DNA of 64,000 nt, from contig CAMAUY010000011.1 in the NCBI GenBank assembly GCA_945861565.1, positions 6,444 to 70,443 of the forward strand. Direction: 5' to 3'. Below are positions 2,296 to 30,914 of this stretch, piece by piece (position 1 is the first letter of the stretch; every line of letters starts with the position of its first letter). This stretch comes from Akkermansia muciniphila (lineage in GTDB: Bacteria > Verrucomicrobiota > Verrucomicrobiia > Limisphaerales > UBA9464). The notes beneath the pieces are model-generated. The model had not been told where the DNA came from, ran no database searches, and saw only the letters and a list, made by a program, of their open reading frames with translations. The position numbers and the translations under genes were made by a program.

Positions 2296-2306
2296 TGGCC
2301 ACTGGA

Positions 2307-2876: not shown

Positions 2877-2925
2877 TGACGGCCGAGCCTACGAGGCCAT
2901 CCGACTGCGACAAGCTTGAATCCCT

Positions 2926-3633: not shown

Positions 3634-5079
3634 TCAGCGGTCCTTCGGGCTTGCGTCCCGGTAGGCCTCGGCGAGAAGTGTTATCGGGTGGACAATACGC
3701 AGGTTCAAGCCTCGTTGGCGGCACCCGTTTTGGATTTGAAGCAGGCAACCGGGATTGCCGGTAGCGACCGTGGTGGCTCCGGTTGTAACGATATGATCGA
3801 CTTTGCGATCGAGGAGTTGTCCTGCCATCTCGGGCTGCGTGAGATTGTAGATGCCGGCGCTCCCGCAGCACCATGTGGATTCGGGGAGCTCGATCAGTTG
3901 GACTCCAGGAATCGCCTTCAATATCTGTCTCGGCTGGTTGGTGATCTTCTGCCCATGACAGAGGTGGCACGCCTCGTGGTAGGTCACCCGCTGGGCCACC
4001 ACCGCAGATGTCACCGGCAGTTGCACGCCAATTTCCACCAACCACTCGTGGATGTCTTTTACCTTGCGGTCCCATTCGGCCGCGCGAGTCGCGTAGAGGG
4101 GGTCGCCGGCGAGCAAATGGGAATAATGCTTGAGATGCGATCCGCATCCAGCTGCATTGGTGATGATTGCGTTATATTGCTCGGGCGGAAATTGGTCGAT
4201 CGCTTTTCGGGCGAGAGTTTGGGCCAGTTCCCACTCTCCGTTATGAGCGTGCAGCGAGCCGCAGCATCCCTGCTCGGGAGGCGTATGGACTTCGCACCCG
4301 CTCTGGGCCAGGACCTCGACCGTGTCTCGGTTGACATCGCTAAAAATCAAGTCCTGGGCGCAACCCGTCAGCATCGCAACCCGGTATCGTGCTTTCCCGC
4401 GGGATGGCGTCACCGGTGAGATCAAGTCCGAAGAGAAGTTTGGTTGGATCGTCGGAGTCATGGCCTCAAGTTCCCTGAGGCGGCGGGGAAGGAGATTGAG
4501 GATGCCGCTTCGGCGCACGAGCGTTTGCAGGCCGAGTTGCTGCCAAAGCCGCAGGAGAGAGCCCACCCACTGGAGCCGGGCGTTTTCCATGAAAAGCCAC
4601 CGTAATGTAAATCCCCGGATGAGCGATCGCCGTGGCGAGTTCAAGACTCCAACGCGCTCGGCTTCAGCACGCGCGTGCTCGAAAAGTTCAGCGTAATTGA
4701 CGCCGGCGGGACAGGCTGTCATGCAGGCAAGACAGCCCAGACAGAAATACATTTCGTCGGCAAATGCCTTGGTCGGTTCAAGGCGATCGTCCGCGATGGC
4801 GCGCATCAGTGCGATGCGTCCCCGTGGACTGTTCCGTTCGAGTTGGGTTGCGTCATAGGTGGGACAGGTCGGCAGGCACAGGCCGCAGTGCATGCACTGT
4901 TGGACCACCGAGTAGTCAAGATCCTTGAGGTGAGATCGGACGCCGGACATCGTGTGTTGGAGAGTGGCGGTCTCGACGGGAGGTGTCGCTAGGAAAATCG
5001 GCTTAACCTCATCTTGTGGTTGTTTGACGGAGCGTGAATGTCTGGTACGGTGTTTTGGGACTTCAGATTGTGTGGGCAA
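3634..5079 (-). CDS. GlcF/heterodisulfide-reductase-like (Fe-S) oxidoreductase
   Basis: Two ferredoxin-type motifs (CMHCGLCLPTCPTY, CLGCLACMTACPAG) followed by two cysteine-rich CCG-type halves. No glcD/glcE neighbour. ATG at 4950 is an alternative start that removes a 43-aa basic extension. Confidence 0.7.
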   Translation of the reverse strand: MPTQSEVPKHRTRHSRSVKQPQDEVKPIFLATPPVETATLQHTMSGVRSHLKDLDYSVVQQCMHCGLCLPTCPTYDATQLERNSPRGRIALMRAIADDRLEPTKAFADEMYFCLGCLACMTACPAGVNYAELFEHARAEAERVGVLNSPRRSLIRGFTLRWLFMENARLQWVGSLLRLWQQLGLQTLVRRSGILNLLPRRLRELEAMTPTIQPNFSSDLISPVTPSRGKARYRVAMLTGCAQDLIFSDVNRDTVEVLAQSGCEVHTPPEQGCCGSLHAHNGEWELAQTLARKAIDQFPPEQYNAIITNAAGCGSHLKHYSHLLAGDPLYATRAAEWDRKVKDIHEWLVEIGVQLPVTSAVVAQRVTYHEACHLCHGQKITNQPRQILKAIPGVQLIELPESTWCCGSAGIYNLTQPEMAGQLLDRKVDHIVTTGATTVATGNPGCLLQIQNGCRQRGLNLRIVHPITLLAEAYRDASPKDR

Positions 5080-6519: not shown

Positions 6520-7794
6520 TCACGCCGCAGCGGCAGATTGCTTCCGAACCAGCATCGGCTTGGCTTCCCCCCGGACGACTGCCCGATTGATCCTGACGCC
6601 TATGACGTCTCCAGAACCGGGAAGTTCGAACATCACGTCTCTCATCAATCGTTCCATCATGGCACGCAGGGCCCGGGCCCCCGTCCCTTTCCGGATGGCT
6701 TGAGTGGCAAGCTCACGGACGGCATCCGGCGTCAGCACCAGATTTGCTCCATCCAATGACAACAGCCGGGAGAATTGCTTCACCAGAGCGTTCTTCGGTT
6801 CGGTGAGAATCTGCACCAGCTGATCTTCCGATAGCTCGTCCAAAATCGTCACAACGGGAAGACGGCCGATAAACTCAGGGATGAAACCGTAGGTCAGCAG
6901 ATCTTCGGGCTCGATTTTATGAAGAATTTCCTGCGTCGTTACCTTGGCGGCTTCGATGGATTCCGGACCCGCGGAAAATCCCATGACGCGCCGGCCAAGG
7001 CGCCGTTGAATCACGCGGTCAATGCCCACAAACGCTCCGCCACAAATGAACAAGATATTGGTTGTATCGACCTTGATGTACTCCTGCTGAGGATGTTTGC
7101 GCCCCCCCTGCGGCGGCACACTGCAGAGGGTCCCTTCTAAAATCTTCAGCAAACCCTGCTGAACTCCTTCGCCGCTCACGTCCCGGGTAATTGACACATT
7201 TTCCGTCTTGCGCGCGATCTTGTCGATTTCGTCAATGTACACGATTCCAACCTGTGCCCGCTTGACGTCGTAGTCGGCATTGTGCAGCAGGCGGAGGATG
7301 ATGTTTTCAACGTCCTCCCCCACGTATCCAGCCTCCGTGATCGAGGTGGCATCGGCGATCGCAAAGGGAACATCCAGCATTCGCGCCAACGTTCGGGCCA
7401 GCATCGTCTTCCCCGAACCCGTCGGCCCCACCACCAGCACGTTGCTTTTTTCCAGTTCAACACCGCTTTCGGTGAGCGCGGGAGTTTCGGCCCCCACGCC
7501 ATTCGACAAGATCCGCTTGTAGTGGTTGTAAACCGCGACCGCGAGTGTTCGTTTGGCCTCGTCCTGGCCAATGACAAACTGATCCAGATGGGCTTTGATC
7601 GCAGCAGGCTTCGGGACTGTCAGCGAGTGAACCTGCTTCTGGACGTCCTGTTTCAGTTCCTTATCGAGGAGCGTCTTGCAAGTCACCACGCAGGTATCAC
7701 AGATGTACACTCCGGGACCGGCGATCAGCTTTTTCACCTCGGCACGCGACTTGCCGCAAAAGCTGCACATCGTGATCTGGGATGCTCTGGCCAT
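6520..7794 (-). CDS. clpX: ATP-dependent Clp protease ATP-binding subunit ClpX
   Basis: N-terminal C4 zinc finger (CSFCGK...CDTC), Walker A GPTGSGKT, full-length ClpX-like, directly downstream of clpP. Confidence 0.95.
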
Positions 7795-7824: not shown

Positions 7825-8472
7825 TCAGGGAACCTTTGGCGCGTCGGTCGCGACCAGGGTGGGAATTTCCCGACGACTTGCAACGACCTCATCGACCAGT
7901 CCAAATGATTTGGCGTCCTCGGCGCTCATAAAATTGTCACGGTCGCAGGCCTTCTCGACCGTGGCATAGGGCTGGCCGGTGTGTTTACTGAGAATGGCAT
8001 TGAGACGCTGTTTGAGCTTCAGCATATAGTTCACTCGGATTTCAACATCGCTTGCCTGGCCTTCCGCACCACCGAGGACTTGGTGAATCATGATGTTGGC
8101 ATTCGGCAGGGCAAATCGTTTTCCCTTCGTGCCCCCCGCCAGAAGGACGGCTCCCATGCTCGCGGCCTGCCCGATACAGTAGGTGTTCACGTCGCAGGTT
8201 AGCCATTGCATCGTATCGTAAATCGCCAAGCCTGCGGTGACGCTACCACCCGGCGAATTGATGTAAAAATGAATGTCCTTCTTCGGATCATTCATCTGGA
8301 GGAAGAGAAACTGCGCGACAATCACATTCGCCACCATGTCATCCACCGGCGTGCCGAGGAAGATTATCCGGTCCACCAGCAGTCGCGAGTAAAGGTCATA
8401 ACCCCGCTCCCCACGGCCAGTCTGTTCAATGACGTATGGAATAGAGAAATTTTGGATGAGCTCGTTTTTCAA
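7825..8472 (-). CDS. clpP: ATP-dependent Clp protease proteolytic subunit
   Basis: [20 protein letters not shown], catalytic Ser context GQAASMG, His context MIHQ. TTG start as listed. Confidence 0.93.
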
Positions 8473-8550
8473 GGCACACCAAGGCTAGGAGGGGCACTCG
8501 GGACCGTCAAGGAGGCCCCCCTGCCCATGAACCGACTCCATTTCGCAATT

Positions 8551-8640
8551 CGAGGACGAAGAACGAGGACGAGGACGAGGACGACGACGAAGACGAGGAC
8601 GATTGGAAGGACCCCATTTGCGGCGCTTTCGTCCTCGTCC
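8551..8640. repeat. Purine-rich (GAC/GAG)n tract plus inverted repeat upstream of clpP
   Basis: 8551-8602 is cgaggacgaagaacgaggacgaggacgaggacgacgacgaagacgaggacga. GACGAGGACGA (8592-8602) pairs perfectly with TCGTCCTCGTC (8629-8639). An alternative 12-bp register uses 8567-8578. Confidence 0.8.
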
Positions 8641-8750
8641 GTCGATGGCGACGACCCTCACACCGACCTATGCACCGGAACGCACGGAGCGCGGTTCATG
8701 GCGCCCATGGCGCGCACTGTCAGATTTGGCGGACCCTCTCTTTAGGGAAG

Positions 8751-9248
8751 TTATCGGGTGGAAAACGTGACCTCCCCCGTTCGCCGGCCAGCCTTCAACT
8801 GTAGCCGGTATTTGACGCCCGCCTGCAACGGCTCCGGGTCGCGGCTTCCGGGCGCGGGTTTCATCCACGGAACCGACATGCCATAGACGATGATTTTTGA
8901 TGGAAACGAACGCGCCAGACCGCCCTTCAGGTGCCATAGGATCCGTCTGCCATTCGTCGTTTCCTCCGTTACCAGCACAGAGCTCAAACGGTAACGGGTA
9001 TCGAGGGAAAATACCACCGGACACACTCCGTTGGTTGATGTCGCAGCCGGGTCGGCGTTCCTGGATCGCGTGATAATCCTTGTCGCCCGCACCGATGGGA
9101 TGATTTCAATCGGGGTCGGGCTCAGCCAGTCCGTGAAGAAAATCACGTAAAACGGAATCAATCCAAGAAACAGCCACAGCAGTTTCCTCCGCCGAGAGAT
9201 ATTTGGCGCCGAAGGCACGGGGCGTTGAGCTCGTTGCGGAAAAGTCAT
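8751..9248 (-). CDS. Hypothetical membrane-anchored protein
   Basis: 165-aa ORF with one N-terminal TM segment (LLWLFLGLIPFYVIFF). No recognisable family. Confidence 0.4.
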   Translation of the reverse strand: MTFPQRAQRPVPSAPNISRRRKLLWLFLGLIPFYVIFFTDWLSPTPIEIIPSVRATRIITRSRNADPAATSTNGVCPVVFSLDTRYRLSSVLVTEETTNGRRILWHLKGGLARSFPSKIIVYGMSVPWMKPAPGSRDPEPLQAGVKYRLQLKAGRRTGEVTFSTR

Positions 9249-17647: not shown

Positions 17648-18670
17648 ATGGTTCGCATTCTTCAAGTGATATTTGCAGTTGTTTTACTTCACGGATCAGC
17701 GCGTGGGTCGCTCCAGATCGAGTTCGACTACACTTACGACACCGCAAATTTTTTCTCGGCTGAACATTCCGATCGGCGCATAACGTTGGAACGTGCCGCC
17801 GAGCTCTTTGAGTCTCGGATATTGGATGACTTCGCGGCTATCAATCCGGCGGGCGGAGATACTTGGACTCTGTCGTTCCCGCATCCTTCCACCGGGGAAA
17901 TCGTTTTTCTGCAGGACCTCAGCCTTCCGAAGAGCACCATCCGCATTTTTGTAGGGGCACGTGATCTTCCGGGCAATGTTTTGGGGTACTCGGAGTTCAA
18001 CTACTCGTGGTCGGCGGCTACATCCGGATTTTTCAACATGTTTTCTGCCCGGACCAGTACAACTAACTTCGATTCGCTGGGCGGGTCTATTTCGTTCGAC
18101 ACGAATACCCCCTTCTATTTCGACGAAGACCCATCCACGCTGGAGCCGTTTTTTGGTCAGAACGACTTCTATTCGCTTGCGGTGCACGAAATTGGACACT
18201 TGCTCGGAATCTCTGCAAGCGTGTCGGCATTTCACGCGGCCACGAAAAGCGGAGAATTTGTAGGTGCCGCGGCGAGCACTTTCTTCGGAGGGCCTGTTCC
18301 GCTGGCGCCCGATCTGACGCACGTTAAGCAGGGCACCGTTTCCCATGGGCAAGAGTCTGCAATGATGCTCGCAAACCAGGGGGTTCGCCGAACGTTCTCA
18401 GAGCTGGACTTTGCAATTCTGCAGGACATTGGCTACGAGATTAAATTGCCCGAACCGGTCTTTCGCCTGCTGGTGCCAGTTCCCCAGCCAGATGGAAAAT
18501 TGGTCCTCAGTTGGACTGGGGGAGGGGGTCCGTTCCAGATTCAATCCCGTGCGTCGATGCTCGCTCCTTGGATGAACCTGGGTACCAGTACTTCGGACCG
18601 AAATTCAATCGTTGATGCGACGGCTGCGCATGCTTTCTTCCGGGTCGTCGACCTGGGACGTCACCCATGA
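17648..18670 (+). CDS. Secreted HExxH metallopeptidase-like protein
   Basis: Signal peptide and zincin motif AVHEIGHLLGI. The third metzincin His is not in the canonical position. It has a ~70-aa C-terminal module ending FFRVVD. Confidence 0.6.
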   Translation: MVRILQVIFAVVLLHGSARGSLQIEFDYTYDTANFFSAEHSDRRITLERAAELFESRILDDFAAINPAGGDTWTLSFPHPSTGEIVFLQDLSLPKSTIRIFVGARDLPGNVLGYSEFNYSWSAATSGFFNMFSARTSTTNFDSLGGSISFDTNTPFYFDEDPSTLEPFFGQNDFYSLAVHEIGHLLGISASVSAFHAATKSGEFVGAAASTFFGGPVPLAPDLTHVKQGTVSHGQESAMMLANQGVRRTFSELDFAILQDIGYEIKLPEPVFRLLVPVPQPDGKLVLSWTGGGGPFQIQSRASMLAPWMNLGTSTSDRNSIVDATAAHAFFRVVDLGRHP

Positions 18671-19539: not shown

Positions 19540-20511
19540 TTACCGGGAGGGTTCCAAGGGTGAAGGTTTTCTTCCCCACCCAAGGATTTTGGCAACGGCA
19601 TTGCGAACCTCGTCGCCGGTAAAGAACAGCGGGTACGTTGCAACGCAGACCAAGAACTCTGGAACGTTTAGAAGGACGGCAATCTGAAGATGAAAGATGG
19701 CGGCCGAGATGGCGGCCCAGAGTCGGAACCGGCGGATGGCGAAGGCAAATGGGAGCCAGAATTCGAAGACGACGACAAAAATTGTCATCGCGAGATGCAC
19801 CCACGAGGGAAGTGGGAGACGCGCAAACCAGTACGCAGGCGGCGTAGCCCACATATTGCAAAACGTGTACTTCATCATTCCGGCGTCGCGCCAGGCCGGA
19901 TCGAACATCTTGAATACGGCAGCCCCGCCATAGAGGAACATAATTTGCAGGGTCATCAGTCGGGCACCCCAGCGCCAAACCCTCACCTTTTGAGCCCCCG
20001 GAGTTCGAGTGAGAGCGGTAAGGGACCAAACTCGGTCCAAGTCGGCGAGGCACGAGGTTCCGAGGAAAAGAATGGTGAGCCGGTCATAGGCACAATCTCT
20101 TACACCGATGCTCAGGAAGTAGTAGTAAAGAAAAAGAGCGAGAATGACCGGGGTCACGATTCGGGTCATGAATCCGACCGTGAAGGAGGTGACCAGGATG
20201 ATAAAAAACCAGAACAGGATCCCAGCGCCCACAGGAGGCAGCGCAATGTCAGGAATGCGGAATGGGTTGTAGATTCCCTGATTGGAAAACTCCAAGGTAA
20301 CCGATCCCATAAAGCTTATTAGGAAATAAGCCAGTATGTATAGGCCGAAAAGGATTCGGAACAGGGCAAAGGCATAGCCGGAGTCCTTGGCAAACCAATA
20401 CTCATTCCATCGAGTCGTCCATTTCTGGAGAAAACGCACTTGGTTGAGAGCGTGAGCGGGCACGGCAGCCTTTGCTGGTTCACTGCCGGAAGGCATTTCG
20501 GTCGCAGTCAT
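19540..20511 (-). CDS. HTTM-domain (vitamin-K-dependent gamma-carboxylase-like) membrane protein, paralog 1
   Basis: Polytopic. Carries FALFRILFG, DLDRVWSL and QIMFLYGGAAVFK motifs typical of HTTM. ATG 20511 overlaps the upstream stop as ATGA. Confidence 0.75.
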   Translation of the reverse strand: MTATEMPSGSEPAKAAVPAHALNQVRFLQKWTTRWNEYWFAKDSGYAFALFRILFGLYILAYFLISFMGSVTLEFSNQGIYNPFRIPDIALPPVGAGILFWFFIILVTSFTVGFMTRIVTPVILALFLYYYFLSIGVRDCAYDRLTILFLGTSCLADLDRVWSLTALTRTPGAQKVRVWRWGARLMTLQIMFLYGGAAVFKMFDPAWRDAGMMKYTFCNMWATPPAYWFARLPLPSWVHLAMTIFVVVFEFWLPFAFAIRRFRLWAAISAAIFHLQIAVLLNVPEFLVCVATYPLFFTGDEVRNAVAKILGWGRKPSPLEPSR

Positions 20512-21056
20512 CGGGTAAGAAGGAGGTCCTCCCAAAAGATCGACTCTAGAGTATTGGTGGCGGTCGGGTCGTTGCGAAGGCTATCCCAACCGTGCGGGCT
20601 TGACGGCCAGGAATCGATTCGGAGGCCGACGCGAGAGATGGGGCGATCCGGGTGGTGACGGTTGTGGTAGCGCCAGACTTTTTCTCCGAGGTTCATCATC
20701 GCGTCGATATGAATCTTCGGGTTCACACTGGACGCATGTTTGGTAGCTCGCAAGCGCATGAATTGGTCTCCTTTCTTGTGCGGGACGAGCTCATCGGTGG
20801 GAAGTGGAATCCAGTTAGTGGGGCTCAGGGCAGCGCCTCTGGGCAGTCCCCAAAGCGTGAACTGGCTGTTCGTTGCGGTAAAGGTGGCAAACATTCCGAA
20901 CAGCTGAAAGGTACTGATTGCCTCCCGTGGCAGGGGGAGTTTGACGGGCATCCCTGGGGCGACGCTGCGCAATAGAACCGAAACGTTGGCGTAAATGACG
21001 CTGCCTGCGATGGCAGAGAGCACCATCATGCGTTGTTTTTTTCGAAAAACGGACAT
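20508..21056 (-). CDS. HTTM-partner protein, paralog 1 (N-terminal TM anchor, unknown family)
   Basis: 182 aa from ATG 21056, which is the first start after the DUF4340 stop. Alignable over its full length with 27558-28088 (LPRE, FGMFA, FTLWG, WIPLPTDE, LGEKVWRYHNRHHPDRP). Confidence 0.65.
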   Translation of the reverse strand: MSVFRKKQRMMVLSAIAGSVIYANVSVLLRSVAPGMPVKLPLPREAISTFQLFGMFATFTATNSQFTLWGLPRGAALSPTNWIPLPTDELVPHKKGDQFMRLRATKHASSVNPKIHIDAMMNLGEKVWRYHNRHHPDRPISRVGLRIDSWPSSPHGWDSLRNDPTATNTLESIFWEDLLLTR

Positions 21057-21127
21057 GGCCCGAAAAAAAGGGTGCCAGAAATGTATCGCCCTGGAAAGGC
21101 CGAGTTGAAGGCGGCGTTGAATAGGAA

Positions 21128-22921
21128 TCAGCGCACGGGCAGCAGATGGTAAAGATCCTCGTAAAGGGTCCTGGGCAGCTTCAAATGGATGGAGAGCGGA
21201 TCGTCGTCGAAGTTTGCCAGCACGACAACCTCGGTGCCAAGGTCGGCGCCGAATCGCAGCCTCCATTGTTGCAGAGGCCCGGATCGTTCGCGGAATACGA
21301 GGGATATCTCGTGACTACGATCGGAAAACTTGTAGGCCTTCAGAAACGTAGCCTCGTCGCGGATGGTAAATCGGACCGAATTCCAGTCACTGAGGCGGTG
21401 GAGCAGCTCATCAAATGAATCTGACGGAAGGCTTGGTTCGCCCGTCTCCCAGCTACCTTCAGCCGATCTTTGAAACACCCGGGTGCGGCCGCCGCGTTGC
21501 ACGCGAATTTCCGTCACGTTGGTGGAGGCAAAATGCCAGTCACGAAGTTGGTTTGCGGTTTCGGGCAGTCGAAAATCAATTTTGGGGACCGCGTAGACTC
21601 CCGGCTCGTCCGAACGACGGACGTACAGAAGGGCAGAGTTATTGGTAAGGGGACGGCCAAACTGGATTTTGACGATCGGTTGGTTGGTGACGGATGCGAC
21701 CCGGTTGGTGACTCGTTTTCCCAAAGCGAATTCGCGATTCGGTTCAGCCAAACCGAATTTTGCGAAATCGGTCACGACGTCTGCGGGAAATTCGATGATT
21801 TCGAGGGATGCTAATTCCGCGAGCAGGTGGTCAATTCCTGAGGGATCGGCGGGAAATCTCCTGGGCAGCTGAATCCACCAATTGGTCCCCTCCCGCTCGA
21901 GAGTCGTCTCATTCGTGCCAAACCGGAAATGAATGTAGGCAGTGGCGTCGAGTGGGGGTGTGAGCTGTCGATCGCGGAACGCAGACAGCGGTGCATCCAA
22001 TGATGTTAGTGTTTTGTTTGGAACTAAATACACATTTGTTTGGAGCAGATTCCGGACGTACCGCCAGGACGGCTGATTGGTGGGTGAACGTCCAATTTGC
22101 AGTCGCACCAGATCATCCGTTCCCTCGCCGGCCGCAAATTCGATGGCTGGCGGCTGTAGACCGAATGCAGCGGCATCAACCATGGGGGCATCGGTTACAA
22201 ACTCAGCGATCCTGGCATTTTTCAATTCATTGAGTAACAGTTCCAGGCGGGCACCATCAGCTCGGGCAGCCAGCGGACGGGTCAGTCGCCAGACTCCGGT
22301 GGATGGATCCCGTTCGGCCTTTAAATCGGTTTGACCTCGAATTTCGATGCGGTTCACTTGGGCATCCCGAAGGCTGAGCAGGGAACGATCCCGCCAGTCG
22401 TTCGCGTTGGCGGGCAGGGCATCCAATAGAGCGGTATCGGCGACGAACAGCCCGTCGGATCCCATCCGTTGGAAGTAGAAACGATTCCCCACCGGCGACG
22501 GGCTACCGAGATTTAGGACCGTGCGATCGGTTACGGATTCGATCGTCAAAAGGGCCTGGGGAGGTTGCAGGCCGAAGGCGGCGAGGCCGCCGGGCTGGGC
22601 CGCAATCTCGGCAGCACTGACATGTGCGGTCGGTTCGAGCTTCTTGAGGGCGTCGATCATTCGGTCAATTCCGACGGTTTGAGCGGGCTGAGAGACGGGG
22701 TATTTGAGCCACCAGCCCTTGCTATCCCGTTCGACTCGCATGACCTGATTGCTGCGCTGCAATTCAAGTGAGCGCACACTGGCAAGCTCCAAGGGCCGGA
22801 ACGCTGCGTGCCCGCCGTGCGTCGCCCGGATCCGGATCGGGGCTCGAAGCTCGACGAATTTCAAATAGCTGGCCAGCGCGATGGCAACGAGCAGGAGGAT
22901 CCATGTGTGGCGAGAATTCAT
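21128..22921 (-). CDS. DUF4340 domain protein
   Basis: 597 aa with an N-terminal TM (WILLLVAIALASYL). Repetitive beta-rich body, in the usual position downstream of a GldG-like gene. Confidence 0.65.
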   Translation of the reverse strand: MNSRHTWILLLVAIALASYLKFVELRAPIRIRATHGGHAAFRPLELASVRSLELQRSNQVMRVERDSKGWWLKYPVSQPAQTVGIDRMIDALKKLEPTAHVSAAEIAAQPGGLAAFGLQPPQALLTIESVTDRTVLNLGSPSPVGNRFYFQRMGSDGLFVADTALLDALPANANDWRDRSLLSLRDAQVNRIEIRGQTDLKAERDPSTGVWRLTRPLAARADGARLELLLNELKNARIAEFVTDAPMVDAAAFGLQPPAIEFAAGEGTDDLVRLQIGRSPTNQPSWRYVRNLLQTNVYLVPNKTLTSLDAPLSAFRDRQLTPPLDATAYIHFRFGTNETTLEREGTNWWIQLPRRFPADPSGIDHLLAELASLEIIEFPADVVTDFAKFGLAEPNREFALGKRVTNRVASVTNQPIVKIQFGRPLTNNSALLYVRRSDEPGVYAVPKIDFRLPETANQLRDWHFASTNVTEIRVQRGGRTRVFQRSAEGSWETGEPSLPSDSFDELLHRLSDWNSVRFTIRDEATFLKAYKFSDRSHEISLVFRERSGPLQQWRLRFGADLGTEVVVLANFDDDPLSIHLKLPRTLYEDLYHLLPVR

Positions 22922-22946
22922 ACAGGAGGACGAGGGGCATCCAGGC

Positions 22947-24446
22947 TCATGCGCGTCGTCGGAGCCAAACGATGATACCCAGGAGGAGTACCGATCCGGG
23001 AAGGACCATGAGGAAAAGCCAGCGCAGGATGGTGAGCTGAGTCGGAGTCAATCGAAGGGTGTACTCGTGGATAGGTTTGGGACCAATGGCGAGGAATTGC
23101 TGGCGATCGAGAAGCCAGTTCACGGCCAAGCCGGCGAAATCCCGATTGGATGCACTCTCAATTAATTGGTTTCCAAAACAGAATGAGTCTCCCACGACCA
23201 CGATGCGAGACGCACCACGGTTGGCGGTCACGCCGGCCAGTCCGCCTTTTTCAGCCGCGGCGGCGATTGGGATCATCTGCCCCTGAATGTCGATGCGGGA
23301 ATCATAGTAGGCGGTTCCATCGCGAATCCTGGATTTGGTCTGACCGGCATTACTGGTGAAGAGGAGCTGTTCCACCTTGGGAGGGTCCGCTGGCATGAAT
23401 TTTTCGGGGATCTTACCCACCGTTCGGGGCAGTAGGAGTTGAACCTTATGATGCCCGTGCGCCAAAGAGTTCACGACCGGGTGGGCACCGAACTCCCCTA
23501 CTAGAACATCGGAGCCGCCGGTGGTCTGTTGCCCATCAGCCACGACACTGGGTCGGACGGCGATGCCCCAACGGATGAGAAATTCCTCCAGGCCCGTGGC
23601 GATGGCAAGGCTCTCCACGTTCATCAGCACGAGCAAACGGCCTCCTTGATCGAGGAAAGACCCAATTTTTCGCAGTGTGTTTGCTTCCAGGGGGCTGTTT
23701 GCGCCGGCGATCACAAGCAGTTCACAATCGGGAGGCAGTGACTCCCGCGTTGCACCCAATGTGAGGGGGTCCACGGACACGTTCCTTTCCGCCAGGAGTT
23801 CGATGAATTTGCGGTAACCGTTCTGATCACTGCTTTGCGGATCGTGTTCTCCGTGCCCTTGCAGGTAGCAGACCCGCGGGCGGATGGCCTCGCTGACGGT
23901 TAGAATCGCGGCGGTAAAGAGAGCTTCGCCCTTAAATGCCGAGCGACGGACCTCCCGACTGCCCCCTTGCAACATGCGATTGACGTCTGCGTCGTAGACG
24001 GAGAGTTCGGAGCTGCGGACGAAACGGGTTTCCTTTCCTGCCTCGAAGATCACCAGGTCCTTATCGTCCCGCCCTAGATTGTACCGGTCGCGAATCTGAA
24101 TGGCCCGTCCGGGTGCGAGGCTGTAGTCAACGACGTCGAGGGTGATTTTGGAAGACAGGCTCCGGTAGATTCGGAGCATCGCATCGACGTGACTGAAGAG
24201 CCCGATTTCCGAGTCATAAAGTACTGTGATGCGGACCTGATTGGTCAGATTTTGGAGGACCTGAAGGGTCAGCGGACTGAGGACGAATCGATCGCCGGAA
24301 GTGAGATCTTTGCGCAAGGGGTGACGAGCCGCCAAGTAGTTGAGCATGACCAGGATTGCCAGGAACAGACTGGCCGCGACGAGCACGTGGACGGCGATAC
24401 CCAGGCGGCGTCCGGACGGAAAACTGGGAGGAGGAAGATCGTCCAC
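22947..24446 (-). CDS. GldG-family ABC-transporter auxiliary protein
   Basis: N-terminal and C-terminal TM segments. LNYLAARHPLRKDLTSGDRFVLSPLTLQVLQNL...VRITVLY is the GldG-type start. Confidence 0.75.
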   Translation of the reverse strand: MDDLPPPSFPSGRRLGIAVHVLVAASLFLAILVMLNYLAARHPLRKDLTSGDRFVLSPLTLQVLQNLTNQVRITVLYDSEIGLFSHVDAMLRIYRSLSSKITLDVVDYSLAPGRAIQIRDRYNLGRDDKDLVIFEAGKETRFVRSSELSVYDADVNRMLQGGSREVRRSAFKGEALFTAAILTVSEAIRPRVCYLQGHGEHDPQSSDQNGYRKFIELLAERNVSVDPLTLGATRESLPPDCELLVIAGANSPLEANTLRKIGSFLDQGGRLLVLMNVESLAIATGLEEFLIRWGIAVRPSVVADGQQTTGGSDVLVGEFGAHPVVNSLAHGHHKVQLLLPRTVGKIPEKFMPADPPKVEQLLFTSNAGQTKSRIRDGTAYYDSRIDIQGQMIPIAAAAEKGGLAGVTANRGASRIVVVGDSFCFGNQLIESASNRDFAGLAVNWLLDRQQFLAIGPKPIHEYTLRLTPTQLTILRWLFLMVLPGSVLLLGIIVWLRRRA

Positions 24447-24450
24447 AGGA

Positions 24451-25203
24451 TTATTTCCAACGGCGGCTCTCGACCACCCGTTGAGTCAAGTAGAGAAAAA
24501 AAGCCGTCCCCGTGAGGTAGAACACGACCTGACGGGTGTCGATGATGCCGCGGGAAAAATCGAACAAATGTCGCATGACGGATGTATAGTCCAGCACGGC
24601 ACCCCATCCACTTTCCGAGGGGGAAAGGGCCGCGGATCGGAGGCTGAGAACGAAGAGGCCGACTCCGAGGAGGAAGCTGAAAATGGCGGCGATGATTTGG
24701 CTTCGGGTCAGGGAACTTGCGAAGCAACCCATGGCCATGTAGAGCGACCCTATCAGCAGAATACCGAAGAAAGTTCCGGCGGTGACCCGGGGGTCGAGTG
24801 TCGCCGGATCGCCGGTGAAGTGGCGAATGATGAAAAGGCAGCCGAGGAGTGGTAACCAGACTAGGGCGAAGAAGGCGAGCGTGCCTCCGAATTTAGCCAG
24901 AACCACCTGCCAGTCTCCGACGGGAGCAGTCATGAGGGATTCATAGGTTCCGGTGGATTTTTCCAGCGCAAACGCTCTCATGGTGATCATCGGAGCGGTG
25001 ATTAGGAGAATCACCCAAAAGTACACCGTGGCATAAAATTGCTCTGTCACGGGGGCGTCTTGTGGGATCCCGTTCAGCTTGCCGAGCATGTCCACAAAGC
25101 TGAACCCGAATAAAAAAAGCACAGCGGCGATGACCACGTATCCGATCAGCGACTTGAAGTAACCGCCGAGTTCACGTCGAATTAGTGCCAAGATCACATT
25201 CAT
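24451..25203 (-). CDS. ABC-2 type permease (GldF-like)
   Basis: MNVILALIRRELGGYFKSLIGYV and six predicted TM segments. ATG 25203 overlaps the ATPase stop as ATGA. Confidence 0.8.
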   Translation of the reverse strand: MNVILALIRRELGGYFKSLIGYVVIAAVLFLFGFSFVDMLGKLNGIPQDAPVTEQFYATVYFWVILLITAPMITMRAFALEKSTGTYESLMTAPVGDWQVVLAKFGGTLAFFALVWLPLLGCLFIIRHFTGDPATLDPRVTAGTFFGILLIGSLYMAMGCFASSLTRSQIIAAIFSFLLGVGLFVLSLRSAALSPSESGWGAVLDYTSVMRHLFDFSRGIIDTRQVVFYLTGTAFFLYLTQRVVESRRWK

Positions 25204-26168
25204 TGTCCGGGCAGGTCCTTTCCTTGCTGGCGGGTCAGGTGGATAAAAATGTCCTCCAATGAATGCCGACTCCGTGTGAGTTCGCGCAAACTCCATTCGT
25301 TGTCGCGGACGATGGCAAAGACGAGGGGCCGGAGATCGGCACCATTCCGCGGAGTAAGAGCGACGCGAAACCACTCGCCGTCCGCGGGAGCAACGTCCCA
25401 TCTTTCGATTTCAGGGAGATCTCGCCAGCACTCCCGCAGAGCCTCATGCGGCGCGGCGATTTCGGCGATTACCTGTCCGTCGAGGCTCAGTTTTCGCTTC
25501 AGATTTTCGGTAGTATCTGCCGCTAGAATTCGACCCTGGTTGAGGATTAACACCCGGCTACAGGTCATCTCCACTTCGGGAAGAATATGAGTGGAAATCA
25601 GGATGGTTGTGGTTTTTCCGAGTTCCTTGATCAGGGCACGGACGGCGCGAATCTGGTGGGGGTCCAGTCCGATGGTGGGTTCATCCAGCATGATCAGATC
25701 CGGTTCATGCACGAGAGCATCCGCCAATCCCACACGCTGCCGGTACCCTTTCGAGAGCTGTCCAGTGATGCGCCGGTGGACCTCCGTTAGTCCACATTGT
25801 TGGAGAACGATATCGACCCGATCGCGGGACCGCTGCCATCCGAGTCCCTTCAATCGGGCTCGGAATTTCAAGTACTCCCGGACCCGCATGTCCAGGTGCA
25901 AGGGATTACTTTCGGGCATGTACCCGATACGCCTTCGAACTTCGTCGGGTTCTCGGTAGACGTCGAAGCCGGCTACCCGGGCGGTTCCACCGGTCGCGGG
26001 CAGAAAACAAGCCAGAATTCGCATCGTGGTGGACTTACCGGCCCCATTGGGGCCCAGAAAGCCGACCACTTCACCGCGCCCGACTGTGAACGTGATGCCA
26101 TCCACCGCCGTGCGTCCTGGGTACCGCTTTGTGAGGTCGTGGACCTCGATCATCGGTGAGTCGATCAT
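25200..26168 (-). CDS. ABC transporter ATP-binding protein (GldA-like)
   Basis: Walker A GPNGAGKST, signature LSKGYRQR, Walker B LIMLDEP, H-loop STHIL. All motifs are canonical. Confidence 0.9.
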   Translation of the reverse strand: MIDSPMIEVHDLTKRYPGRTAVDGITFTVGRGEVVGFLGPNGAGKSTTMRILACFLPATGGTARVAGFDVYREPDEVRRRIGYMPESNPLHLDMRVREYLKFRARLKGLGWQRSRDRVDIVLQQCGLTEVHRRITGQLSKGYRQRVGLADALVHEPDLIMLDEPTIGLDPHQIRAVRALIKELGKTTTILISTHILPEVEMTCSRVLILNQGRILAADTTENLKRKLSLDGQVIAEIAAPHEALRECWRDLPEIERWDVAPADGEWFRVALTPRNGADLRPLVFAIVRDNEWSLRELTRSRHSLEDIFIHLTRQQGKDLPGQ

Positions 26169-26432
26169 GACGAAGAGCGGAACAATAGCGGGTTAAGACA
26201 CGGTCGTACAAACATGCTTTAAAAATTGCACTGACGCCCCGACCGACTGGATCGTGTCGGCTGGCATGAGTGCGAACTCCCCGTTTGACACAAATTGCAG
26301 AGATTGAGAGAAAGAGGTGAAGAGTGGGTCTCGATTAAGAACCAGCAGCGGGAGCTTGGCTCTCTCCACAGGAAATTGCTCCTCGCGGGTTAGCGGGCGA
26401 GACTGTCTCATTTAAGTCGGAAAGTTCCCTTT

Positions 26433-26945
26433 ATGCCCCTCGGCCTACATCGTCCAAAGCGTCCCCGTGTCAGCGCGGGTTTGCTGATGTACCGAGTGTG
26501 CCGGGTGGAATTGGAGGTTTTCATTGCGCACCCGGGCGGGCCTTGGTTTCCGCACCGGGATTATGACGTGTGGACCATTCCCAAGGGTGAGATCGAGCCG
26601 GGCGAGGAGACGTTTGCGGCGGCGGTTCGAGAATTCGAGGAAGAGGTTGGGATCCGACCCTGCGGGCCGTTCATTGAGTTGGGCTCGATCCTGCAAAAAG
26701 GTGGAAAAACGGTGCATGCTTGGGCATTTGAAGGCAACTGGAGTGAAACGGGTCCTCCCAAGAGCAATCATTTCTCGTTGGAGTGGCCACCGGGGTCTGG
26801 AAATTGGCAGGAGTTTCCTGAAGTGGACCGGGCGGGGTTCTTTTCCCTGGATGGAGCCAAGGAGCGGCTGAAGTTGACGCAACAACCGCTGCTCGACCGC
26901 CTCGTCGTGGCGCTCGGGACCCTGGCTGTGCATACTCGGCGCTGA
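26433..26945 (+). CDS. NUDIX hydrolase
   Basis: Nudix box GEIEPGEETFAAAVREFEEEVGI. Confidence 0.85.
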   Translation: MPLGLHRPKRPRVSAGLLMYRVCRVELEVFIAHPGGPWFPHRDYDVWTIPKGEIEPGEETFAAAVREFEEEVGIRPCGPFIELGSILQKGGKTVHAWAFEGNWSETGPPKSNHFSLEWPPGSGNWQEFPEVDRAGFFSLDGAKERLKLTQQPLLDRLVVALGTLAVHTRR

Positions 26946-27023
26946 GGGAGGGACAACCGGGCACGGGCGAACGTCGCCGGCCGATTTCGAACGTCCTTTC
27001 GCGGTTTGAGCGGGTTGGTGGGC

Positions 27024-27413
27024 CTACTCTTTCGCCCAAAAATCCAACACAAAGACATCGGCAACTAGGGCGCGGGCCAATTTGCCGAATTCCTTGTGGT
27101 CCGGGTGCACGAGATAGTCATCCCGGTCTTTCTCGCTGTTGAACGTCAAGATCCATCCGTGGGTGCAACCCTTATTCAAGCCCTCCGGGCTATTGTTTTC
27201 GCCGGCTTCCAGTTTGGCAACCTGCGGAATCTTTAGCTTCAGACCGCGGAACGCGTCTTCGAGCGTGCGAATTTCGGCCTTTGTGGCGGAATCCTTGAAC
27301 TTAAAGGCCACCACGTGGCGCAATTTGCCTTTGCCTTTCTTTGCCGGCGCGGCGGTGGCGGGGAGGGAAAGAGTGGTTCCCAAGACCAGGCCGGGAAGAA
27401 TAAATCGTTTCAT
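27024..27413 (-). CDS. Secreted Dabb (stress-responsive A/B barrel) protein
   Basis: Signal peptide MKRFILPGLVLGTTLSLPATA. LRHVVAFKFKD...HPDHKEF matches the Dabb family. Confidence 0.7.
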   Translation of the reverse strand: MKRFILPGLVLGTTLSLPATAAPAKKGKGKLRHVVAFKFKDSATKAEIRTLEDAFRGLKLKIPQVAKLEAGENNSPEGLNKGCTHGWILTFNSEKDRDDYLVHPDHKEFGKLARALVADVFVLDFWAKE

Positions 27414-27557
27414 GAACTGGCGCGAAGAATGCATTGCGCAAAACGCTATTCGATCCGGCGGTTGAGGCAAGCTCGCATCCGACGATGGGGCAGAACGGGG
27501 GTCATTTCGAGACGCCCGGCGTTGCCTCCCAGTGGCTTTTACCGGTACTTTCCTGCA

Positions 27558-28088
27558 ATGAGATTCAAGCTTCGCGGGCTGCTAGCCTTTCAATCGCTGT
27601 TGGCCCTCTTGGTTGTTGGGTCGGATGTGTTGCTCATTCCCACCCAGGTTTGGAGCACACTCGCGGGTGTCCCGACGATCTTGCCGCGGGAGATGGGGAG
27701 TCTCGTCTGTTTTGGGCTGTTTGCGAATTATTCCTCCAACAACATGGAATTCACCCTCTGGGGGCGCCCGCCGGGCGGCGGTACCAATATTTCCGAATGG
27801 CGACCGCTTCCTTCGGACGAATTCTTCCCATTCTGGAGGGGGATTCAGTATAACATGATGAAGGCGGAGGTCTCAGGCGTGAACTCGTCCGGCCAGAATC
27901 AGGCGGATGTTCATCAGGTACTGGGAAACAAAGTTCGGCGCCGGCATAACTTCTTGCATCCGGATGCTCCGGTCACCCAGATCGCCTATCGTCATATGAC
28001 GTGGCCGGCAAATTCAGGAGGATTCCACGTCGGCACCAATTCCCCGGATGCCGTTTTTCAATATCTTATTCTGACGGATGCACAATGA
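27558..28088 (+). CDS. HTTM-partner protein, paralog 2
   Basis: 176 aa with an N-terminal TM. Homologous to 20508-21056 (LPRE, FGLFA, FTLWG, WRPLPSDE, LGNKVRRRHNFLHPDAP). Confidence 0.65.
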   Translation: MRFKLRGLLAFQSLLALLVVGSDVLLIPTQVWSTLAGVPTILPREMGSLVCFGLFANYSSNNMEFTLWGRPPGGGTNISEWRPLPSDEFFPFWRGIQYNMMKAEVSGVNSSGQNQADVHQVLGNKVRRRHNFLHPDAPVTQIAYRHMTWPANSGGFHVGTNSPDAVFQYLILTDAQ

Positions 28089-29041
28089 ATTCCTCCAATC
28101 CGATATTAACTGACCGAGCGCCGCGGCAGATTTCAGGACGGCTCGGGGCAGCATTTCGAGGGTGGCACCAGTTCTGGTTTCCCCTCGACACCGGACACAG
28201 TCTGGCCGGATATCGAATTTGTTTTGGATTCTATCTGTTCTGGTACTGGGGACGCAACTGGCAGGTCGTGGACACCCTTTTCTCATCCATTGGAGTCTAT
28301 AATCCAACGGTCCTTCCGGATATGGCCCCGGGCCCGGGACTCGCGCGAGCAATCTATGCCGTTTTTCTCGCGCTTCATATTCCTTTTATTCTCGGGCTCT
28401 TCACCCGAGTGATCACTCCGCTCGTCTGGGCTGGCTATGTTTATCACTGGTTGCTCCAATTTCGCACCGGTGGCGCCGCGTTCGATAATCTGAACGTCTT
28501 TTTTCTCTTTCTCCTGTGCTTTTCTGACTTGGATCGGGTTTGGTCGATCACCGCCAGCCTGCGGCCCGCCTCTGCGGCCCGTCGTAAGGTATCGCAATTT
28601 TCCGCGCGGCTCATAGCCGTGCACATATCATTTCTATATTCCGGCACGGGATTATACAAATTGACGATGCCTGAATGGCGGGCCGGCTTGGTGCTGCCGT
28701 GGACTCTGATCGGACGGTGGGCGACTTCCGCGGGCTATTGGATTGGCGATTTATCCCTTCCGGCTGGCGCCTATACAATCGCTTCCTGGCTGGTGATCGT
28801 TATGGAGATATTCCTGCCAGTTTTTCTCTGGACCCGAAGGTATCGACTCGCGGCGTGTCTGGTGGGCGCCCTCTTTCACATCGGAGTCGCCGTGACGCTT
28901 GGGATCACCGGCTTCCTTACATGCATCGCCACTTATGTGTTGTTCTGGGAGCCGGAGGTTTTGAAAAATGCCTCGGGGCGCTGGATGGAGACGTGGCGTC
29001 CGCGGAAAGAACATGAGCCGTCCGTTAATCGCGATAATTGA
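28085..29041 (+). CDS. HTTM-domain membrane protein, paralog 2
   Basis: ATG 28085 overlaps the partner stop as ATGA. Carries GYRICFG, DLDRVWSITA, ISFLYSGTGLYK and ATYVLF motifs shared with paralog 1. Confidence 0.75.
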   Translation: MNSSNPILTDRAPRQISGRLGAAFRGWHQFWFPLDTGHSLAGYRICFGFYLFWYWGRNWQVVDTLFSSIGVYNPTVLPDMAPGPGLARAIYAVFLALHIPFILGLFTRVITPLVWAGYVYHWLLQFRTGGAAFDNLNVFFLFLLCFSDLDRVWSITASLRPASAARRKVSQFSARLIAVHISFLYSGTGLYKLTMPEWRAGLVLPWTLIGRWATSAGYWIGDLSLPAGAYTIASWLVIVMEIFLPVFLWTRRYRLAACLVGALFHIGVAVTLGITGFLTCIATYVLFWEPEVLKNASGRWMETWRPRKEHEPSVNRDN

Positions 29042-29192: not shown

Positions 29193-29639
29193 CTATTTCA
29201 GGACCGCCTGATGGAATTCGTACCAGTCGTCCAGATTGTTCAGATTGATGGCGTCCGGCAGAACGGAACCATCTTCGGGCAATCCGTTGGCGCTGAGGAT
29301 GCCCTTGCGGGTGTCGTCGTCGTGGATGTATCCGGCGATTGAAACGTTCAACTTGTGAATCGTGGCTTTGTCGAGTTTCACACCGGGCTGTTTACGAATC
29401 CAAGCCTCGAATTGAGGATAGGTTGGCTTGCTGTCGGCGACGAATTTCTTCGCGGCGTCGGGATTGATATTGAGGGCGGCGCACACCATGGCGTCGTAGC
29501 CTTTGCCGATGCCGGGGTATCCGGCGGCAATTTTACCGCGGGCTTCGAGGGAAACCTTCAGCCACATGCGGGGCAGGTGAAGTACACCCAGCGGGCCGGC
29601 AGTACCGGAGCTGATGAGAGGGACGTAAGTATTGCTCAT
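29193..29639 (-). CDS. DUF5069 domain protein
   Basis: GVLHLPRMWLKVSLEARGKIAAGYPGIGKGYD...NLNNLDDWYEFH is typical of DUF5069. ATG 29639 is preferred over GTG 29678. Confidence 0.7.
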   Translation of the reverse strand: MSNTYVPLISSGTAGPLGVLHLPRMWLKVSLEARGKIAAGYPGIGKGYDAMVCAALNINPDAAKKFVADSKPTYPQFEAWIRKQPGVKLDKATIHKLNVSIAGYIHDDDTRKGILSANGLPEDGSVLPDAINLNNLDDWYEFHQAVLK

Positions 29640-29870
29640 GCTAGTTTGTTGAATGTTGTCAATGGAACGGACTTTCACCCTAGTGAACGGCTGGCCACCC
29701 GGTCAAAGAGAAAGTCAACGGCGGCATCGAATGCCGGGGCGGCCCGAGGTTTGTGGAAAATGCGAAAACTCGCTGAATCTCAGTGAATGGGGTGGGTAGG
29801 ATAAAAAACGCGGGTCGGAGGATACTCGGAAGGTTGACCCTGCCCCTATCCAAATCTACTTTGTGCCACG

Positions 29871-30914
29871 ATGCCGGCTGTAGTTGTCCCAATTTCAACC
29901 CCCACTCGCACGGCTGACCCTGCGTGCGAGGCCGCTGTGTGGGAACAAATCGTCGATCCGGTCCGGCCTTTCCTCGACCGCGTATCGTATCAACTGGTGG
30001 CGCAAGTCGAGGCATTTGAGCCTGAAATTGTGGAGTATGCCCGATATGCTCTCGACAATCGAGGCAAGCAGTTGAGGTCTGCATTGATTGCCCTCGCAAG
30101 CGGGGCGGTGGGGAGGGTAACCGAGGAGCTTGTCACCGTCGCGGTCATCATTGAAATGATCCATCTTGCAACTCTGGTTCATGACGATGTCATGGACGGT
30201 GCATTGTTGCGTCGTCGTCGGTCAACGCTTGCGGCGCGCTGGGGCAACGAAGTATCGGTACTGCTGGGAGACTGTCTTTTCGCCCATGCGCTCAAGCTTG
30301 CGGCAGGTTTTTCAACGACGGAAGTCTGTCGGGCGGTGGCGGATGCGACGGGAATTGTCTGTGGGGGCGAAATTCTTCAGACCCACCGACGCGGTCGCTG
30401 GAACTTGACTCGCGCCGAGTATTTCAGAGTGCTTGCAATGAAGACGGCCGAGCTTTTTGCCCTCGCGTGTGAGCTGGGAGCGAAGTTGGGGGGTGGGACT
30501 GTCGAGCAGCAGCGGGCACTGCGCAGATATGGATTGGCCCTGGGGACGGCCTATCAGATCTACGACGACTGCCTCGATGTGTTCGGTGCGGAAGGGGAGG
30601 CAGGAAAATCACTGGGGACGGATCTAGCGAATGGGAAGCCGACCTTGCCGGTATTGATTTATCTGGAGAACGCCGGTTTGGAGGAGCGGTCGGAGTTGAT
30701 AGGGTGGCTGGAGAATTGGCACCCGGAGCTGCTTGCCGGGGTTCGAGACCGGTTGGAACGGGCGGGGGTGTTGGTGGGTTCCGCCGAGGTGATTCGAGAA
30801 TTTCTCAGCGAGGCGGTAGCGGCTGTCGAGGGGTTGCCGGCGACCCCCAGTCGGTCGGCTTTGAACCAGTTTTCGGAGTTTTTATCGCAACGAATTACCA
30901 GTTTAGGTGTCTAA
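29871..30914 (+). CDS. Polyprenyl diphosphate synthase (long-chain, IspB-like)
   Basis: First DDxxD in LVHDDVMDG, second in YQIYDDCLD. Confidence 0.85.
   Translation: MPAVVVPISTPTRTADPACEAAVWEQIVDPVRPFLDRVSYQLVAQVEAFEPEIVEYARYALDNRGKQLRSALIALASGAVGRVTEELVTVAVIIEMIHLATLVHDDVMDGALLRRRRSTLAARWGNEVSVLLGDCLFAHALKLAAGFSTTEVCRAVADATGIVCGGEILQTHRRGRWNLTRAEYFRVLAMKTAELFALACELGAKLGGGTVEQQRALRRYGLALGTAYQIYDDCLDVFGAEGEAGKSLGTDLANGKPTLPVLIYLENAGLEERSELIGWLENWHPELLAGVRDRLERAGVLVGSAEVIREFLSEAVAAVEGLPATPSRSALNQFSEFLSQRITSLGV

Follow-up and report, generated by a model that had tools for sequence, protein, structure and literature searches.

Two paired modules of an unclassified membrane-anchored protein and an HTTM protein, candidate split carboxylase-like enzymes, in a verrucomicrobial contig

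The stretch of DNA considered here (hereafter the window) comprises 64,000 nucleotides of contig CAMAUY010000011.1, positions 6,444 to 70,443, from an assembly deposited as Akkermansia muciniphila (GCA_945861565.1). It carries two copies of a two-gene module, in which a small protein with one N-terminal transmembrane helix, here termed the partner, is encoded directly ahead of a polytopic membrane protein of the HTTM type, related to the membrane core of the vitamin K-dependent gamma-carboxylase GGCX. Module 1 lies on the minus strand and consists of the partner P1 (21056..20508, 182 amino acids) and the HTTM protein H1 (20511..19540, 323 amino acids). Module 2 lies on the plus strand and consists of P2 (27558..28088, 176 amino acids) and H2 (28085..29041, 318 amino acids). 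In both modules the start codon of the HTTM gene overlaps the stop codon of the partner gene in a 4-bp ATGA, a signature of translational coupling, found at 20511..20508 in module 1 (minus-strand junction CCGATGACTG) and at 28085..28088 in module 2 (junction CACAATGAATTCC). The coordinates, the gene order and both overlaps agree with an earlier reading made from the sequence alone (the original prediction) and were confirmed by the open reading frame table and by direct extraction.

The two modules are paralogous, as originally proposed. P1 and P2 share 33% identity over 160 aligned amino acids (E 8e-29) and H1 and H2 share 36% over 288 (E 7e-64). All six motifs quoted for the HTTM pair (GxYNP, GxxTRxxTP, DLDRVWSxTA, FLYxG, RRxRL and ATYxLF) are present in both H1 and H2. 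When the whole window was searched with profile hidden Markov models (HMMs) of the two families, exactly two partner and two HTTM matches were obtained, all of them paired, with P2 scoring 145 bits against the partner HMM. Base composition is even throughout the region holding the modules and the intervening ATP-binding cassette (ABC) genes. The modules are separated by 29–34% identity, the same distance as that between modules of different phyla, and H1 is nearer to proteins from a metagenome contig and from a planctomycete (L001 and L007, 41%) than to H2. Modules 1 and 2 are therefore old paralogues or separate acquisitions rather than the product of a recent inverted duplication.

We examined how widely the pairing is kept by means of a genome scan (10 loci), HMM searches and contig look-ups. 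In every locus of the subfamily with a readable downstream gene, a partner-family gene lies directly upstream of the HTTM gene and in the same orientation; this holds for both window modules and for 16 distinct places elsewhere. Three loci (L026, L027 and L028) fall outside this count because their contigs end before the downstream gene can be identified. The hosts belong to Verrucomicrobiota, Planctomycetota, Acidobacteriota and Melainabacteria, or are unnamed metagenome contigs. The genome scan located both modules in Pedosphaera sp. (L004, on the same contig as L006) and a pair each in CAMDJH010000018.1, from a metagenome-assembled genome (MAG) labelled Akkermansia muciniphila (L005), in Planctomycetota (L007), in Vicinamibacterales (L008), in Melainabacteria (L009) and in a second Verrucomicrobia MAG (L010). 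The metagenome contigs with a pair are L001, L015/16/17, L018, L024, L025, L029, L030 and L031. The pairing is thus kept in at least four bacterial phyla. Two of the refuting outcomes named with the original prediction, a lack of any HTTM profile match and absence of the pair from related genomes, did not come about.

The spacing between the two genes is usually tight. Partner/HTTM junctions range from overlaps of 4–23 bp to gaps of up to about 50 bp, 4-bp overlaps recur, and the sole loose junction (about 180 bp) is found in L030. Over 15 modules, the identity between any two partners is correlated with that between their HTTM proteins (r = 0.93), and the correlation is 0.63 (Mantel p = 2e-4) for pairs below 60% HTTM identity. 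This pattern fits modules 1 and 2 and their relatives having evolved as units, with shared phylogeny adding to the correlation. No third gene is conserved beside the pair in any locus with listed neighbors. In L007-L010 the pair is surrounded by genes for a sulfatase, UvrD, a TonB-dependent receptor, glutamate dehydrogenase, RecJ, EF-Tu, PanE, PBP1 (a class A PBP) and an amidase; CinA and CHAT/caspase genes also occur as neighbors, and the surroundings in the metagenome loci differ again. The partner and the HTTM protein form a real and autonomous unit, and the proposal that the four genes represent two paralogous two-component units is supported.

Several of these loci have particularities of their own. 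The MAG of L005 is the nearest relative of the window (88–94% amino acid identity and the same synteny), followed by the Pedosphaera sp. from Lake Baikal; its label as Akkermansia muciniphila looks wrong. In the Pedosphaera sp. Baikal MAG, the H2 orthologue (L004:878-1933, minus strand) is cut by an in-frame stop into 878-1639 and 1640-1933, reflecting either a pseudogene or an assembly error. The contig of P0018 (JGI 3300047160) presents two tandem pairs, of 166 and 308 amino acids and then of 217 and 318 amino acids, recognized by layout and sizes alone; if the small genes belong to the partner family, whole modules have been duplicated more than once. Finally, two independent metagenome contigs (L030:597-12477 and L031:1-9145) share a larger arrangement around the pair, in the order of a giant upstream protein (with RHS-like similarity in L030), partner, HTTM protein, secreted protein and a further conserved gene. 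The secreted protein is 43% identical between the two contigs and has weak matches to Big domains, and the associated proteins may be candidate substrates in that sub-clade.

The large subunit is a membrane protein of the HTTM/gamma-carboxylase type, as had been predicted. H2 scores well above the gathering threshold of the Pfam HTTM model (PF05090; 52.4 bits against 27.7). H1 alone gives no match to this model even at E 10; relatives with 37–44% identity to H1 carry PF05090. In a search of PDB sequences with a profile of 17 subfamily members, the sole match was human GGCX (E 1e-11, residues 58-318). Similarly, the AlphaFold2 model of H1 (predicted local distance difference test score, pLDDT, of 87) gave 15 Foldseek matches with E <= 0.001, all of them GGCX chains, the best with E 8.5e-9 and a TM-score of 0.69. 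In fold, the HTTM subunit thus matches the membrane core of GGCX as far as about residue 318.

We read the active-site residues from an HMM alignment against the published description of the GGCX active site, in which K218 is the catalytic base and W223, F286 and F299 line the quinone pocket. The catalytic base is matched by K201 in H1 (codon at 19909..19911, minus strand) and by K192 in H2 (codon at 28658..28660, plus strand). W223 corresponds to W207 and W198, F286/H287 to F273/H274 and F264/H265, and F299 to F286 and F277 in H1 and H2 respectively, and D263 is replaced by glutamate (E250 and E241). All of these positions, with glutamate in place of D263, are invariant in the 17-sequence subfamily alignment, and the equivalent of A214 (A197 in H1) is invariant in an alignment of six proteins.

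The partner, on the other hand, belongs to no classified family. P1 and P2 match no Pfam family even at E 10 and gave no relevant NCBIfam match at E <= 1. Word-indexed searching with the partner profile retrieved only 4 proteins; exhaustive searching of 1.84 billion cluster representatives with HMMER brought up only 125 relatives (E <= 0.001), for the most part 160–220 amino acids long. Ten of them were looked up and proved to be nameless or annotated as hypothetical protein, 9 of the 10 coming from metagenome assemblies only. None of 84 scanned members matches Pfam DUF5819 (E <= 0.01) or SdpA, the sole domains among them being of the ICMT/PEMT type in two N-terminally extended members. The family profile has no match among PDB sequences, and PADLOC and plasmid searches with the partner were likewise negative. 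As judged from these comparisons, the partner is not recognizable as SdpA or DUF5819. Conserved motifs of the family are FGVFsxYxxxN, RxNRLHP and WPxSxxGY. The AlphaFold2 model of P1 (pLDDT 91.4) consists of a transmembrane helix (residues 2-32), a short helix (44-56) with the conserved FGVF motif and an outside alpha/beta domain of about 150 amino acids, in which a three-stranded sheet packs with helices. The basic N-terminus of P1 (MSVFRKKQR) and the positive-inside rule suggest an orientation with the N-terminus inside and the C-terminus outside, such that the domain faces the periplasm.

A natural fusion is found in a metagenome contig (L024:994-2289), where a 431-amino acid protein joins an ICMT/PEMT-type membrane methyltransferase domain to a partner domain. 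The HTTM gene that follows (2286-3170) overlaps it by 4 bp, and a convergent gene for an S-adenosylmethionine-dependent methyltransferase comes next. A second representative (P0054) shows an ICMT/PEMT-partner fusion in part. The L024 fusion provides a physical connection between the partner and polytopic membrane enzymes and hints at a carboxyl- or lipid-related substrate. Four very long proteins (P0024, P0042, P0128 and P0140; up to 5236 amino acids) align with the partner profile over as many as 21 short segments. Two of them, P0042 and P0140, were scanned and carry unrelated families, with none of the segments passing on its own; all four look like repeat or composition artefacts and not like members of the family.

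Taken together, we favor with moderate confidence the reading that each module encodes a split, quinol-dependent, carboxylase-like membrane enzyme of two subunits. Beyond the conserved pairing, the GGCX fold and the retained catalytic residues, which are shown, we infer that the two subunits form a complex, that a quinol is used and what the chemistry would be. The HTTM protein would be the catalytic membrane core; its ligand, a reduced naphthoquinone that is presumably menaquinol, would sit in a pocket formed by the equivalents of GGCX Trp223, Phe286 and Phe299. There the invariant lysine (K201 in H1, K192 in H2) would deprotonate the quinol and so start its oxygenation. The partner, translated first and coupled translationally to the HTTM protein, would insert its single helix beside the core, and its periplasmic domain would cap the outer face, closing the active site and selecting the substrate. 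This role would be that of helix 9 and the luminal domain in GGCX and of DUF5819 as predicted for pairs of Firmicutes and Actinobacteria. The strong base arising from quinol oxygenation would then drive modification of an envelope or lipid substrate, by carboxylation or by another reaction that depends on proton abstraction.

Several observations weigh against this split-enzyme reading. In GGCX, Asn159 and His160 hold the substrate glutamate, help to trap CO2 and are required for carboxylation according to the published active-site work. This pocket is not conserved in H1 (D139/C140) or H2 (G130/A131), where the subfamily consensus is N-T. Therefore, classical gamma-carboxylation of glutamate by the pair is unlikely, and a reaction coupled to epoxidase activity, with some other envelope or lipid molecule as substrate, is more likely. 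At the sequence level, homology of the partner to GGCX residues 364-523 was rejected: with a GGCX sequence checked beforehand against PDB, hhalign gave E 0.23, the HMM comparison 0.2 bits, and 257 of 3000 shuffles scored equally. The comparison by hhalign of the partner alignment with five DUF5819 proteins was not significant either (probability 3.5%, E 0.012, 42 collinear columns). Foldseek of the P1 model against PDB returned no significant fold match, and no GGCX chain was among the matches listed. As the partner shows no significant resemblance to DUF5819, to GGCX 364-523 or to a PDB fold, its suggested role as a substitute for helix 9 and the luminal domain is drawn from where it is encoded and how it would span the membrane. 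The neighbors of the pair include no conserved substrate gene. To our knowledge, no bacterial two-subunit HTTM enzyme has been biochemically tested.

One narrower form of the same idea, possible in our judgment but held tentatively, is that the modules are epoxidases only: the HTTM core would turn menaquinol into its epoxide without carboxylation, and the reaction would be coupled to modification of membrane lipids or isoprenoids, as proposed for truncated giant-virus epoxidases. H1 and H2 indeed end near the equivalent of GGCX residue 320, the Asn159/His160 pocket and the conserved 374-418 motif are missing from both, and glutamate stands in place of D263; the viral enzymes likewise lack 374-418 and have glutamate at that position (PMC13486548). 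Further support comes from the two partner representatives with an ICMT/PEMT-type domain (a lipid or prenyl-cysteine carboxyl methyltransferase), from a fatty-acid hydroxylase/desaturase-family gene that neighbors a more distant HTTM-DCC1 gene (L011) and from a polyprenyl synthetase gene about 0.8 kb from module 2. However, the viral proteins have no partner subunit, whereas the window type always has a conserved periplasmic domain, in which several invariant polar or basic positions point to a specific extracytoplasmic substrate, and the loci examined show neither a desaturase nor a VKOR gene linked to the pair. If the HTTM fold served instead as a maturation factor, that is as a non-catalytic scaffold or chaperone with no quinone chemistry, the loss of the glutamate/CO2-pocket residues would be accommodated, and almost all bacterial HTTM proteins are functionally untested. 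Yet the catalytic lysine and the aromatic residues of the quinone pocket are invariant across proteins that are 30–45% identical, which is hard to explain without ligand chemistry, and we regard such a role as very improbable. It is likewise unlikely that the pair serves the maturation and export of a secreted toxin, peptide or protein, in the manner of SdpA and SdpB, which are needed to process SdpC to the SDP toxin. The architecture, a small protein followed by an HTTM protein, is the same, H2 has a weak match to the SdpB model (E 6e-9), and RHS-like, Big-domain or CHAT/caspase genes adjoin some loci. Against this, H2 reaches 35.9 bits where the cut-off of that model (NCBIfam TIGR04033) is 178.4, and H1 and both partners have no NCBIfam match, so that family membership, as raised in the original prediction, is not borne out. 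Moreover, the genes adjoining the pair include no conserved SdpC-like precursor or immunity gene, most loci are flanked by unrelated housekeeping genes, and neither PADLOC matches nor plasmid copies were found.

A different explanation starts from the genomic surroundings of module 1 and takes the pair as accessory subunits of an exporter, co-transcribed with it and modifying or handing over its cargo. Upstream of module 1 and in the same orientation lies a cluster of four genes (21128..26168, minus strand) encoding an ABC ATPase, an ABC-2 permease, a GldG-like protein (ABC_transp_aux) and a protein with three DUF4340 repeats. As had been reported, the cluster has an ATGA coupling of its own: derived from the translations, the permease ATG at 25203 overlaps the ATPase stop (TGA, 25202..25200) by 4 bp, and the Pedosphaera orthologues of ATPase and permease have the same 4-bp overlap (4778-4781). 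Its description as GldA/F/G-type holds in so far as the proteins are homologues; all three fall below the NCBIfam equivalog cut-offs (GldA 317.7 against 402.6, GldF 140.7 against 288.5 and GldG 50.2 against 389.85) and are not equivalogs. The gap between the DUF4340 gene and P1 measures 71 bp (21057..21127). A candidate terminator in this gap was rejected, since the hairpin is weak (z = -0.56) and the T-run is not conserved in relatives. Module 1 may therefore be co-transcribed with the cluster in this lineage, if so as a local arrangement.

The arrangement is kept in two relatives, and these are the only places in which homologues of all four cluster proteins flank the pair (L004/L006 and L005). 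At 75–94% amino acid identity to the window they are so close that their synteny is little informative. In contrast, neither homologues of the four cluster proteins nor any relative of the ABC ATPase (E <= 1e-5) occur within 8 kb of the pair in L007-L010, and the cluster is likewise missing from every metagenome locus for which genes were listed; L018 has an ABC ATPase gene that is unrelated and lies on the opposite strand about 2 kb away. In the window itself, NUDIX and Dabb genes lie between the cluster and module 2, which is oriented away from the cluster. The functional tie to an ABC exporter put forward with the original prediction is thus not supported, and we consider an accessory role of this kind quite improbable. 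The placement of a module beside the ABC genes appears to be a local accident of this lineage, and the cluster is best treated as context and not as part of the conserved module.

Other genes around the modules were noted. The predicted HNH endonuclease gene does follow H1, after about 109 bp if the methionine at 19430 is its start. Downstream of module 2, at a distance of about 0.8 kb, a polyprenyl synthetase gene is found at 29871-30914 (plus strand; Pfam 205.8 bits), with an unclassified 160-amino acid gene (29193-29678, minus strand) in between; the contigs of the relatives end before this position. A quinone side-chain synthase so close to a putative quinol-dependent enzyme may have a functional meaning or may reflect chance. 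Further away, the gene at 17648-18670 (plus strand) encodes a 340-amino acid protein with a signal-like N-terminal segment and an HExxH motif (AVHEIGHLLG). It has no Pfam match at E <= 1e-5 and is possibly a secreted metalloprotease outside the classified families.

Little is known of what bacterial HTTM proteins do, and genetic or biochemical evidence, as far as we found, concerns only SdpB and MloH. Here, a whole HTTM subfamily always comes with a dedicated anchored subunit from a family that no database recognizes, and the pair keeps the quinol-activating residues and not the glutamate pocket. It therefore offers a concrete two-gene unit in which new vitamin K-type chemistry can be tested for in environmental bacteria, with the exporter link removed as a misleading lead. 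It is conceivable, although we advance this speculatively, that the partner family marks a widespread class of split menaquinol-dependent carboxylases or epoxidases of Gram-negative phyla, in which an interchangeable small subunit sets substrate specificity for the modification of envelope proteins or lipids. If so, four sequence-unrelated types of partner would exist (SdpA, DUF5819, a type found in L012 and L013, described below, and the window family), such post-translational modification of envelope proteins, or modification of lipids, would be a bacterial counterpart of vitamin K biology, and the two diverged modules of this genome would act on two different substrates.

Among known systems, GGCX shares with the HTTM subunit the membrane-core fold and the conserved equivalents of K218, W223, F286/H287, F299 and A214, with glutamate for D263. 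Unlike the window proteins, GGCX is a single chain of 758 amino acids with a ninth helix and a large luminal domain that binds the propeptide. In H1 and H2 the chain stops shortly past the region matched to GGCX 58-318 and therefore leaves out helix 9, the luminal domain and the conserved 374-418 motif; the gene upstream encodes a separate small protein of unrelated sequence. Neither N159 nor H160 has a conserved counterpart, and no Gla-type substrate is known for the window pair. SdpA and SdpB of Bacillus subtilis (paralogues YitP and YitO), both required to process SdpC into the SDP toxin, resemble the modules in that a small protein and an HTTM-family membrane protein are encoded in one operon. 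They differ in that the window HTTM proteins are far below the SdpB cut-off, the partners have no match in NCBIfam, which should include the SdpA family, and loci with listed neighbors contain neither an SdpC-like third gene nor an immunity operon.

Two further systems bear on the chemistry. MloH of the malonomycin pathway (Law et al. 2018, as cited in later work) is a bacterial HTTM-type enzyme reported to act on a substrate other than glutamate, and the chemistry can on that account be re-targeted. Its domains are fused in one chain, encoded within a biosynthetic gene cluster; the window enzyme, in contrast, would be split and lies in no such cluster. The giant-virus gamma-carboxylase-like proteins (VKE/VKED) are proposed epoxidases in lipid modification (PMC13486548). 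Similarly to the window proteins they have a truncated HTTM core that keeps K218, carries glutamate at the D263 position and lacks 374-418. Unlike the window pair, they are fused or adjacent to desaturase and VKOR and have no anchored partner subunit (PMC13486548). In a Flavobacteriales MAG (L011), a gene of the fatty-acid hydroxylase/sterol-desaturase family (6782-7525) lies just upstream of an HTTM-DCC1 gene (7860-9209), a neighborhood that echoes the viral linkage of epoxidase and desaturase.

The closest parallel is provided by the pairs of DUF5819 and HTTM(-DCC1) proteins of Bacillota and Actinomycetota. The statement that no arrangement comparable to the modules had been characterized is out of date, since a 2026 preprint predicts with AlphaFold 3 that adjacent DUF5819 and HTTM-DCC1 proteins of Melghirimyces form a complex like the whole of GGCX (bioRxiv 10.64898/2026.08.19.745780); the partner family of the window is a different and previously undescribed one. 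In that model, a prediction without experimental test, the DUF5819 helix superposes on a GGCX helix, the DUF5819 domain takes the position of the clamp domains, and conserved lysine, tryptophan and phenylalanine residues line the vitamin K site (bioRxiv 10.64898/2026.08.19.745780). We found the same gene order and overlaps in five DUF5819+HTTM(+DCC1) loci (L019-L023; Macrococcus, Bacillus, Streptomyces and Virgibacillus plasmids). As in the window, the small protein is anchored by a transmembrane helix, has an outside domain of about 150 amino acids and is encoded directly upstream, often with an overlap, and its HTTM counterpart retains the vitamin K pocket residues Lys, Trp and Phe. The DUF5819 profile itself has no sequence match to GGCX, residues 364-523 included. 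The window family differs in several respects: its partners lack the QNWxLFAPDP motif of DUF5819, no DCC1-like thiol-disulfide oxidoreductase is fused or adjacent, no plasmid copy was found, and its hosts are Verrucomicrobiota, Planctomycetota, Acidobacteriota and Melainabacteria and not Gram-positives. Small open reading frames of about 160 amino acids that overlap the start of HTTM-DCC1 fusion genes were also seen in an Opitutaceae MAG (L012:2452-2934) and an Oligoflexales MAG (L013:514-1005). These are 39% identical to each other, and as a bridge between DUF5819 and the window partner they were rejected because they match neither family; they form a further partner family. An HTTM core combined with a variable small cap subunit is thereby suggested as a general design. 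In summary, the theme of an anchored small protein together with an HTTM core is known and recurrent, and what is new is the partner family of the window, which occurs without DCC1 and in Gram-negative phyla.

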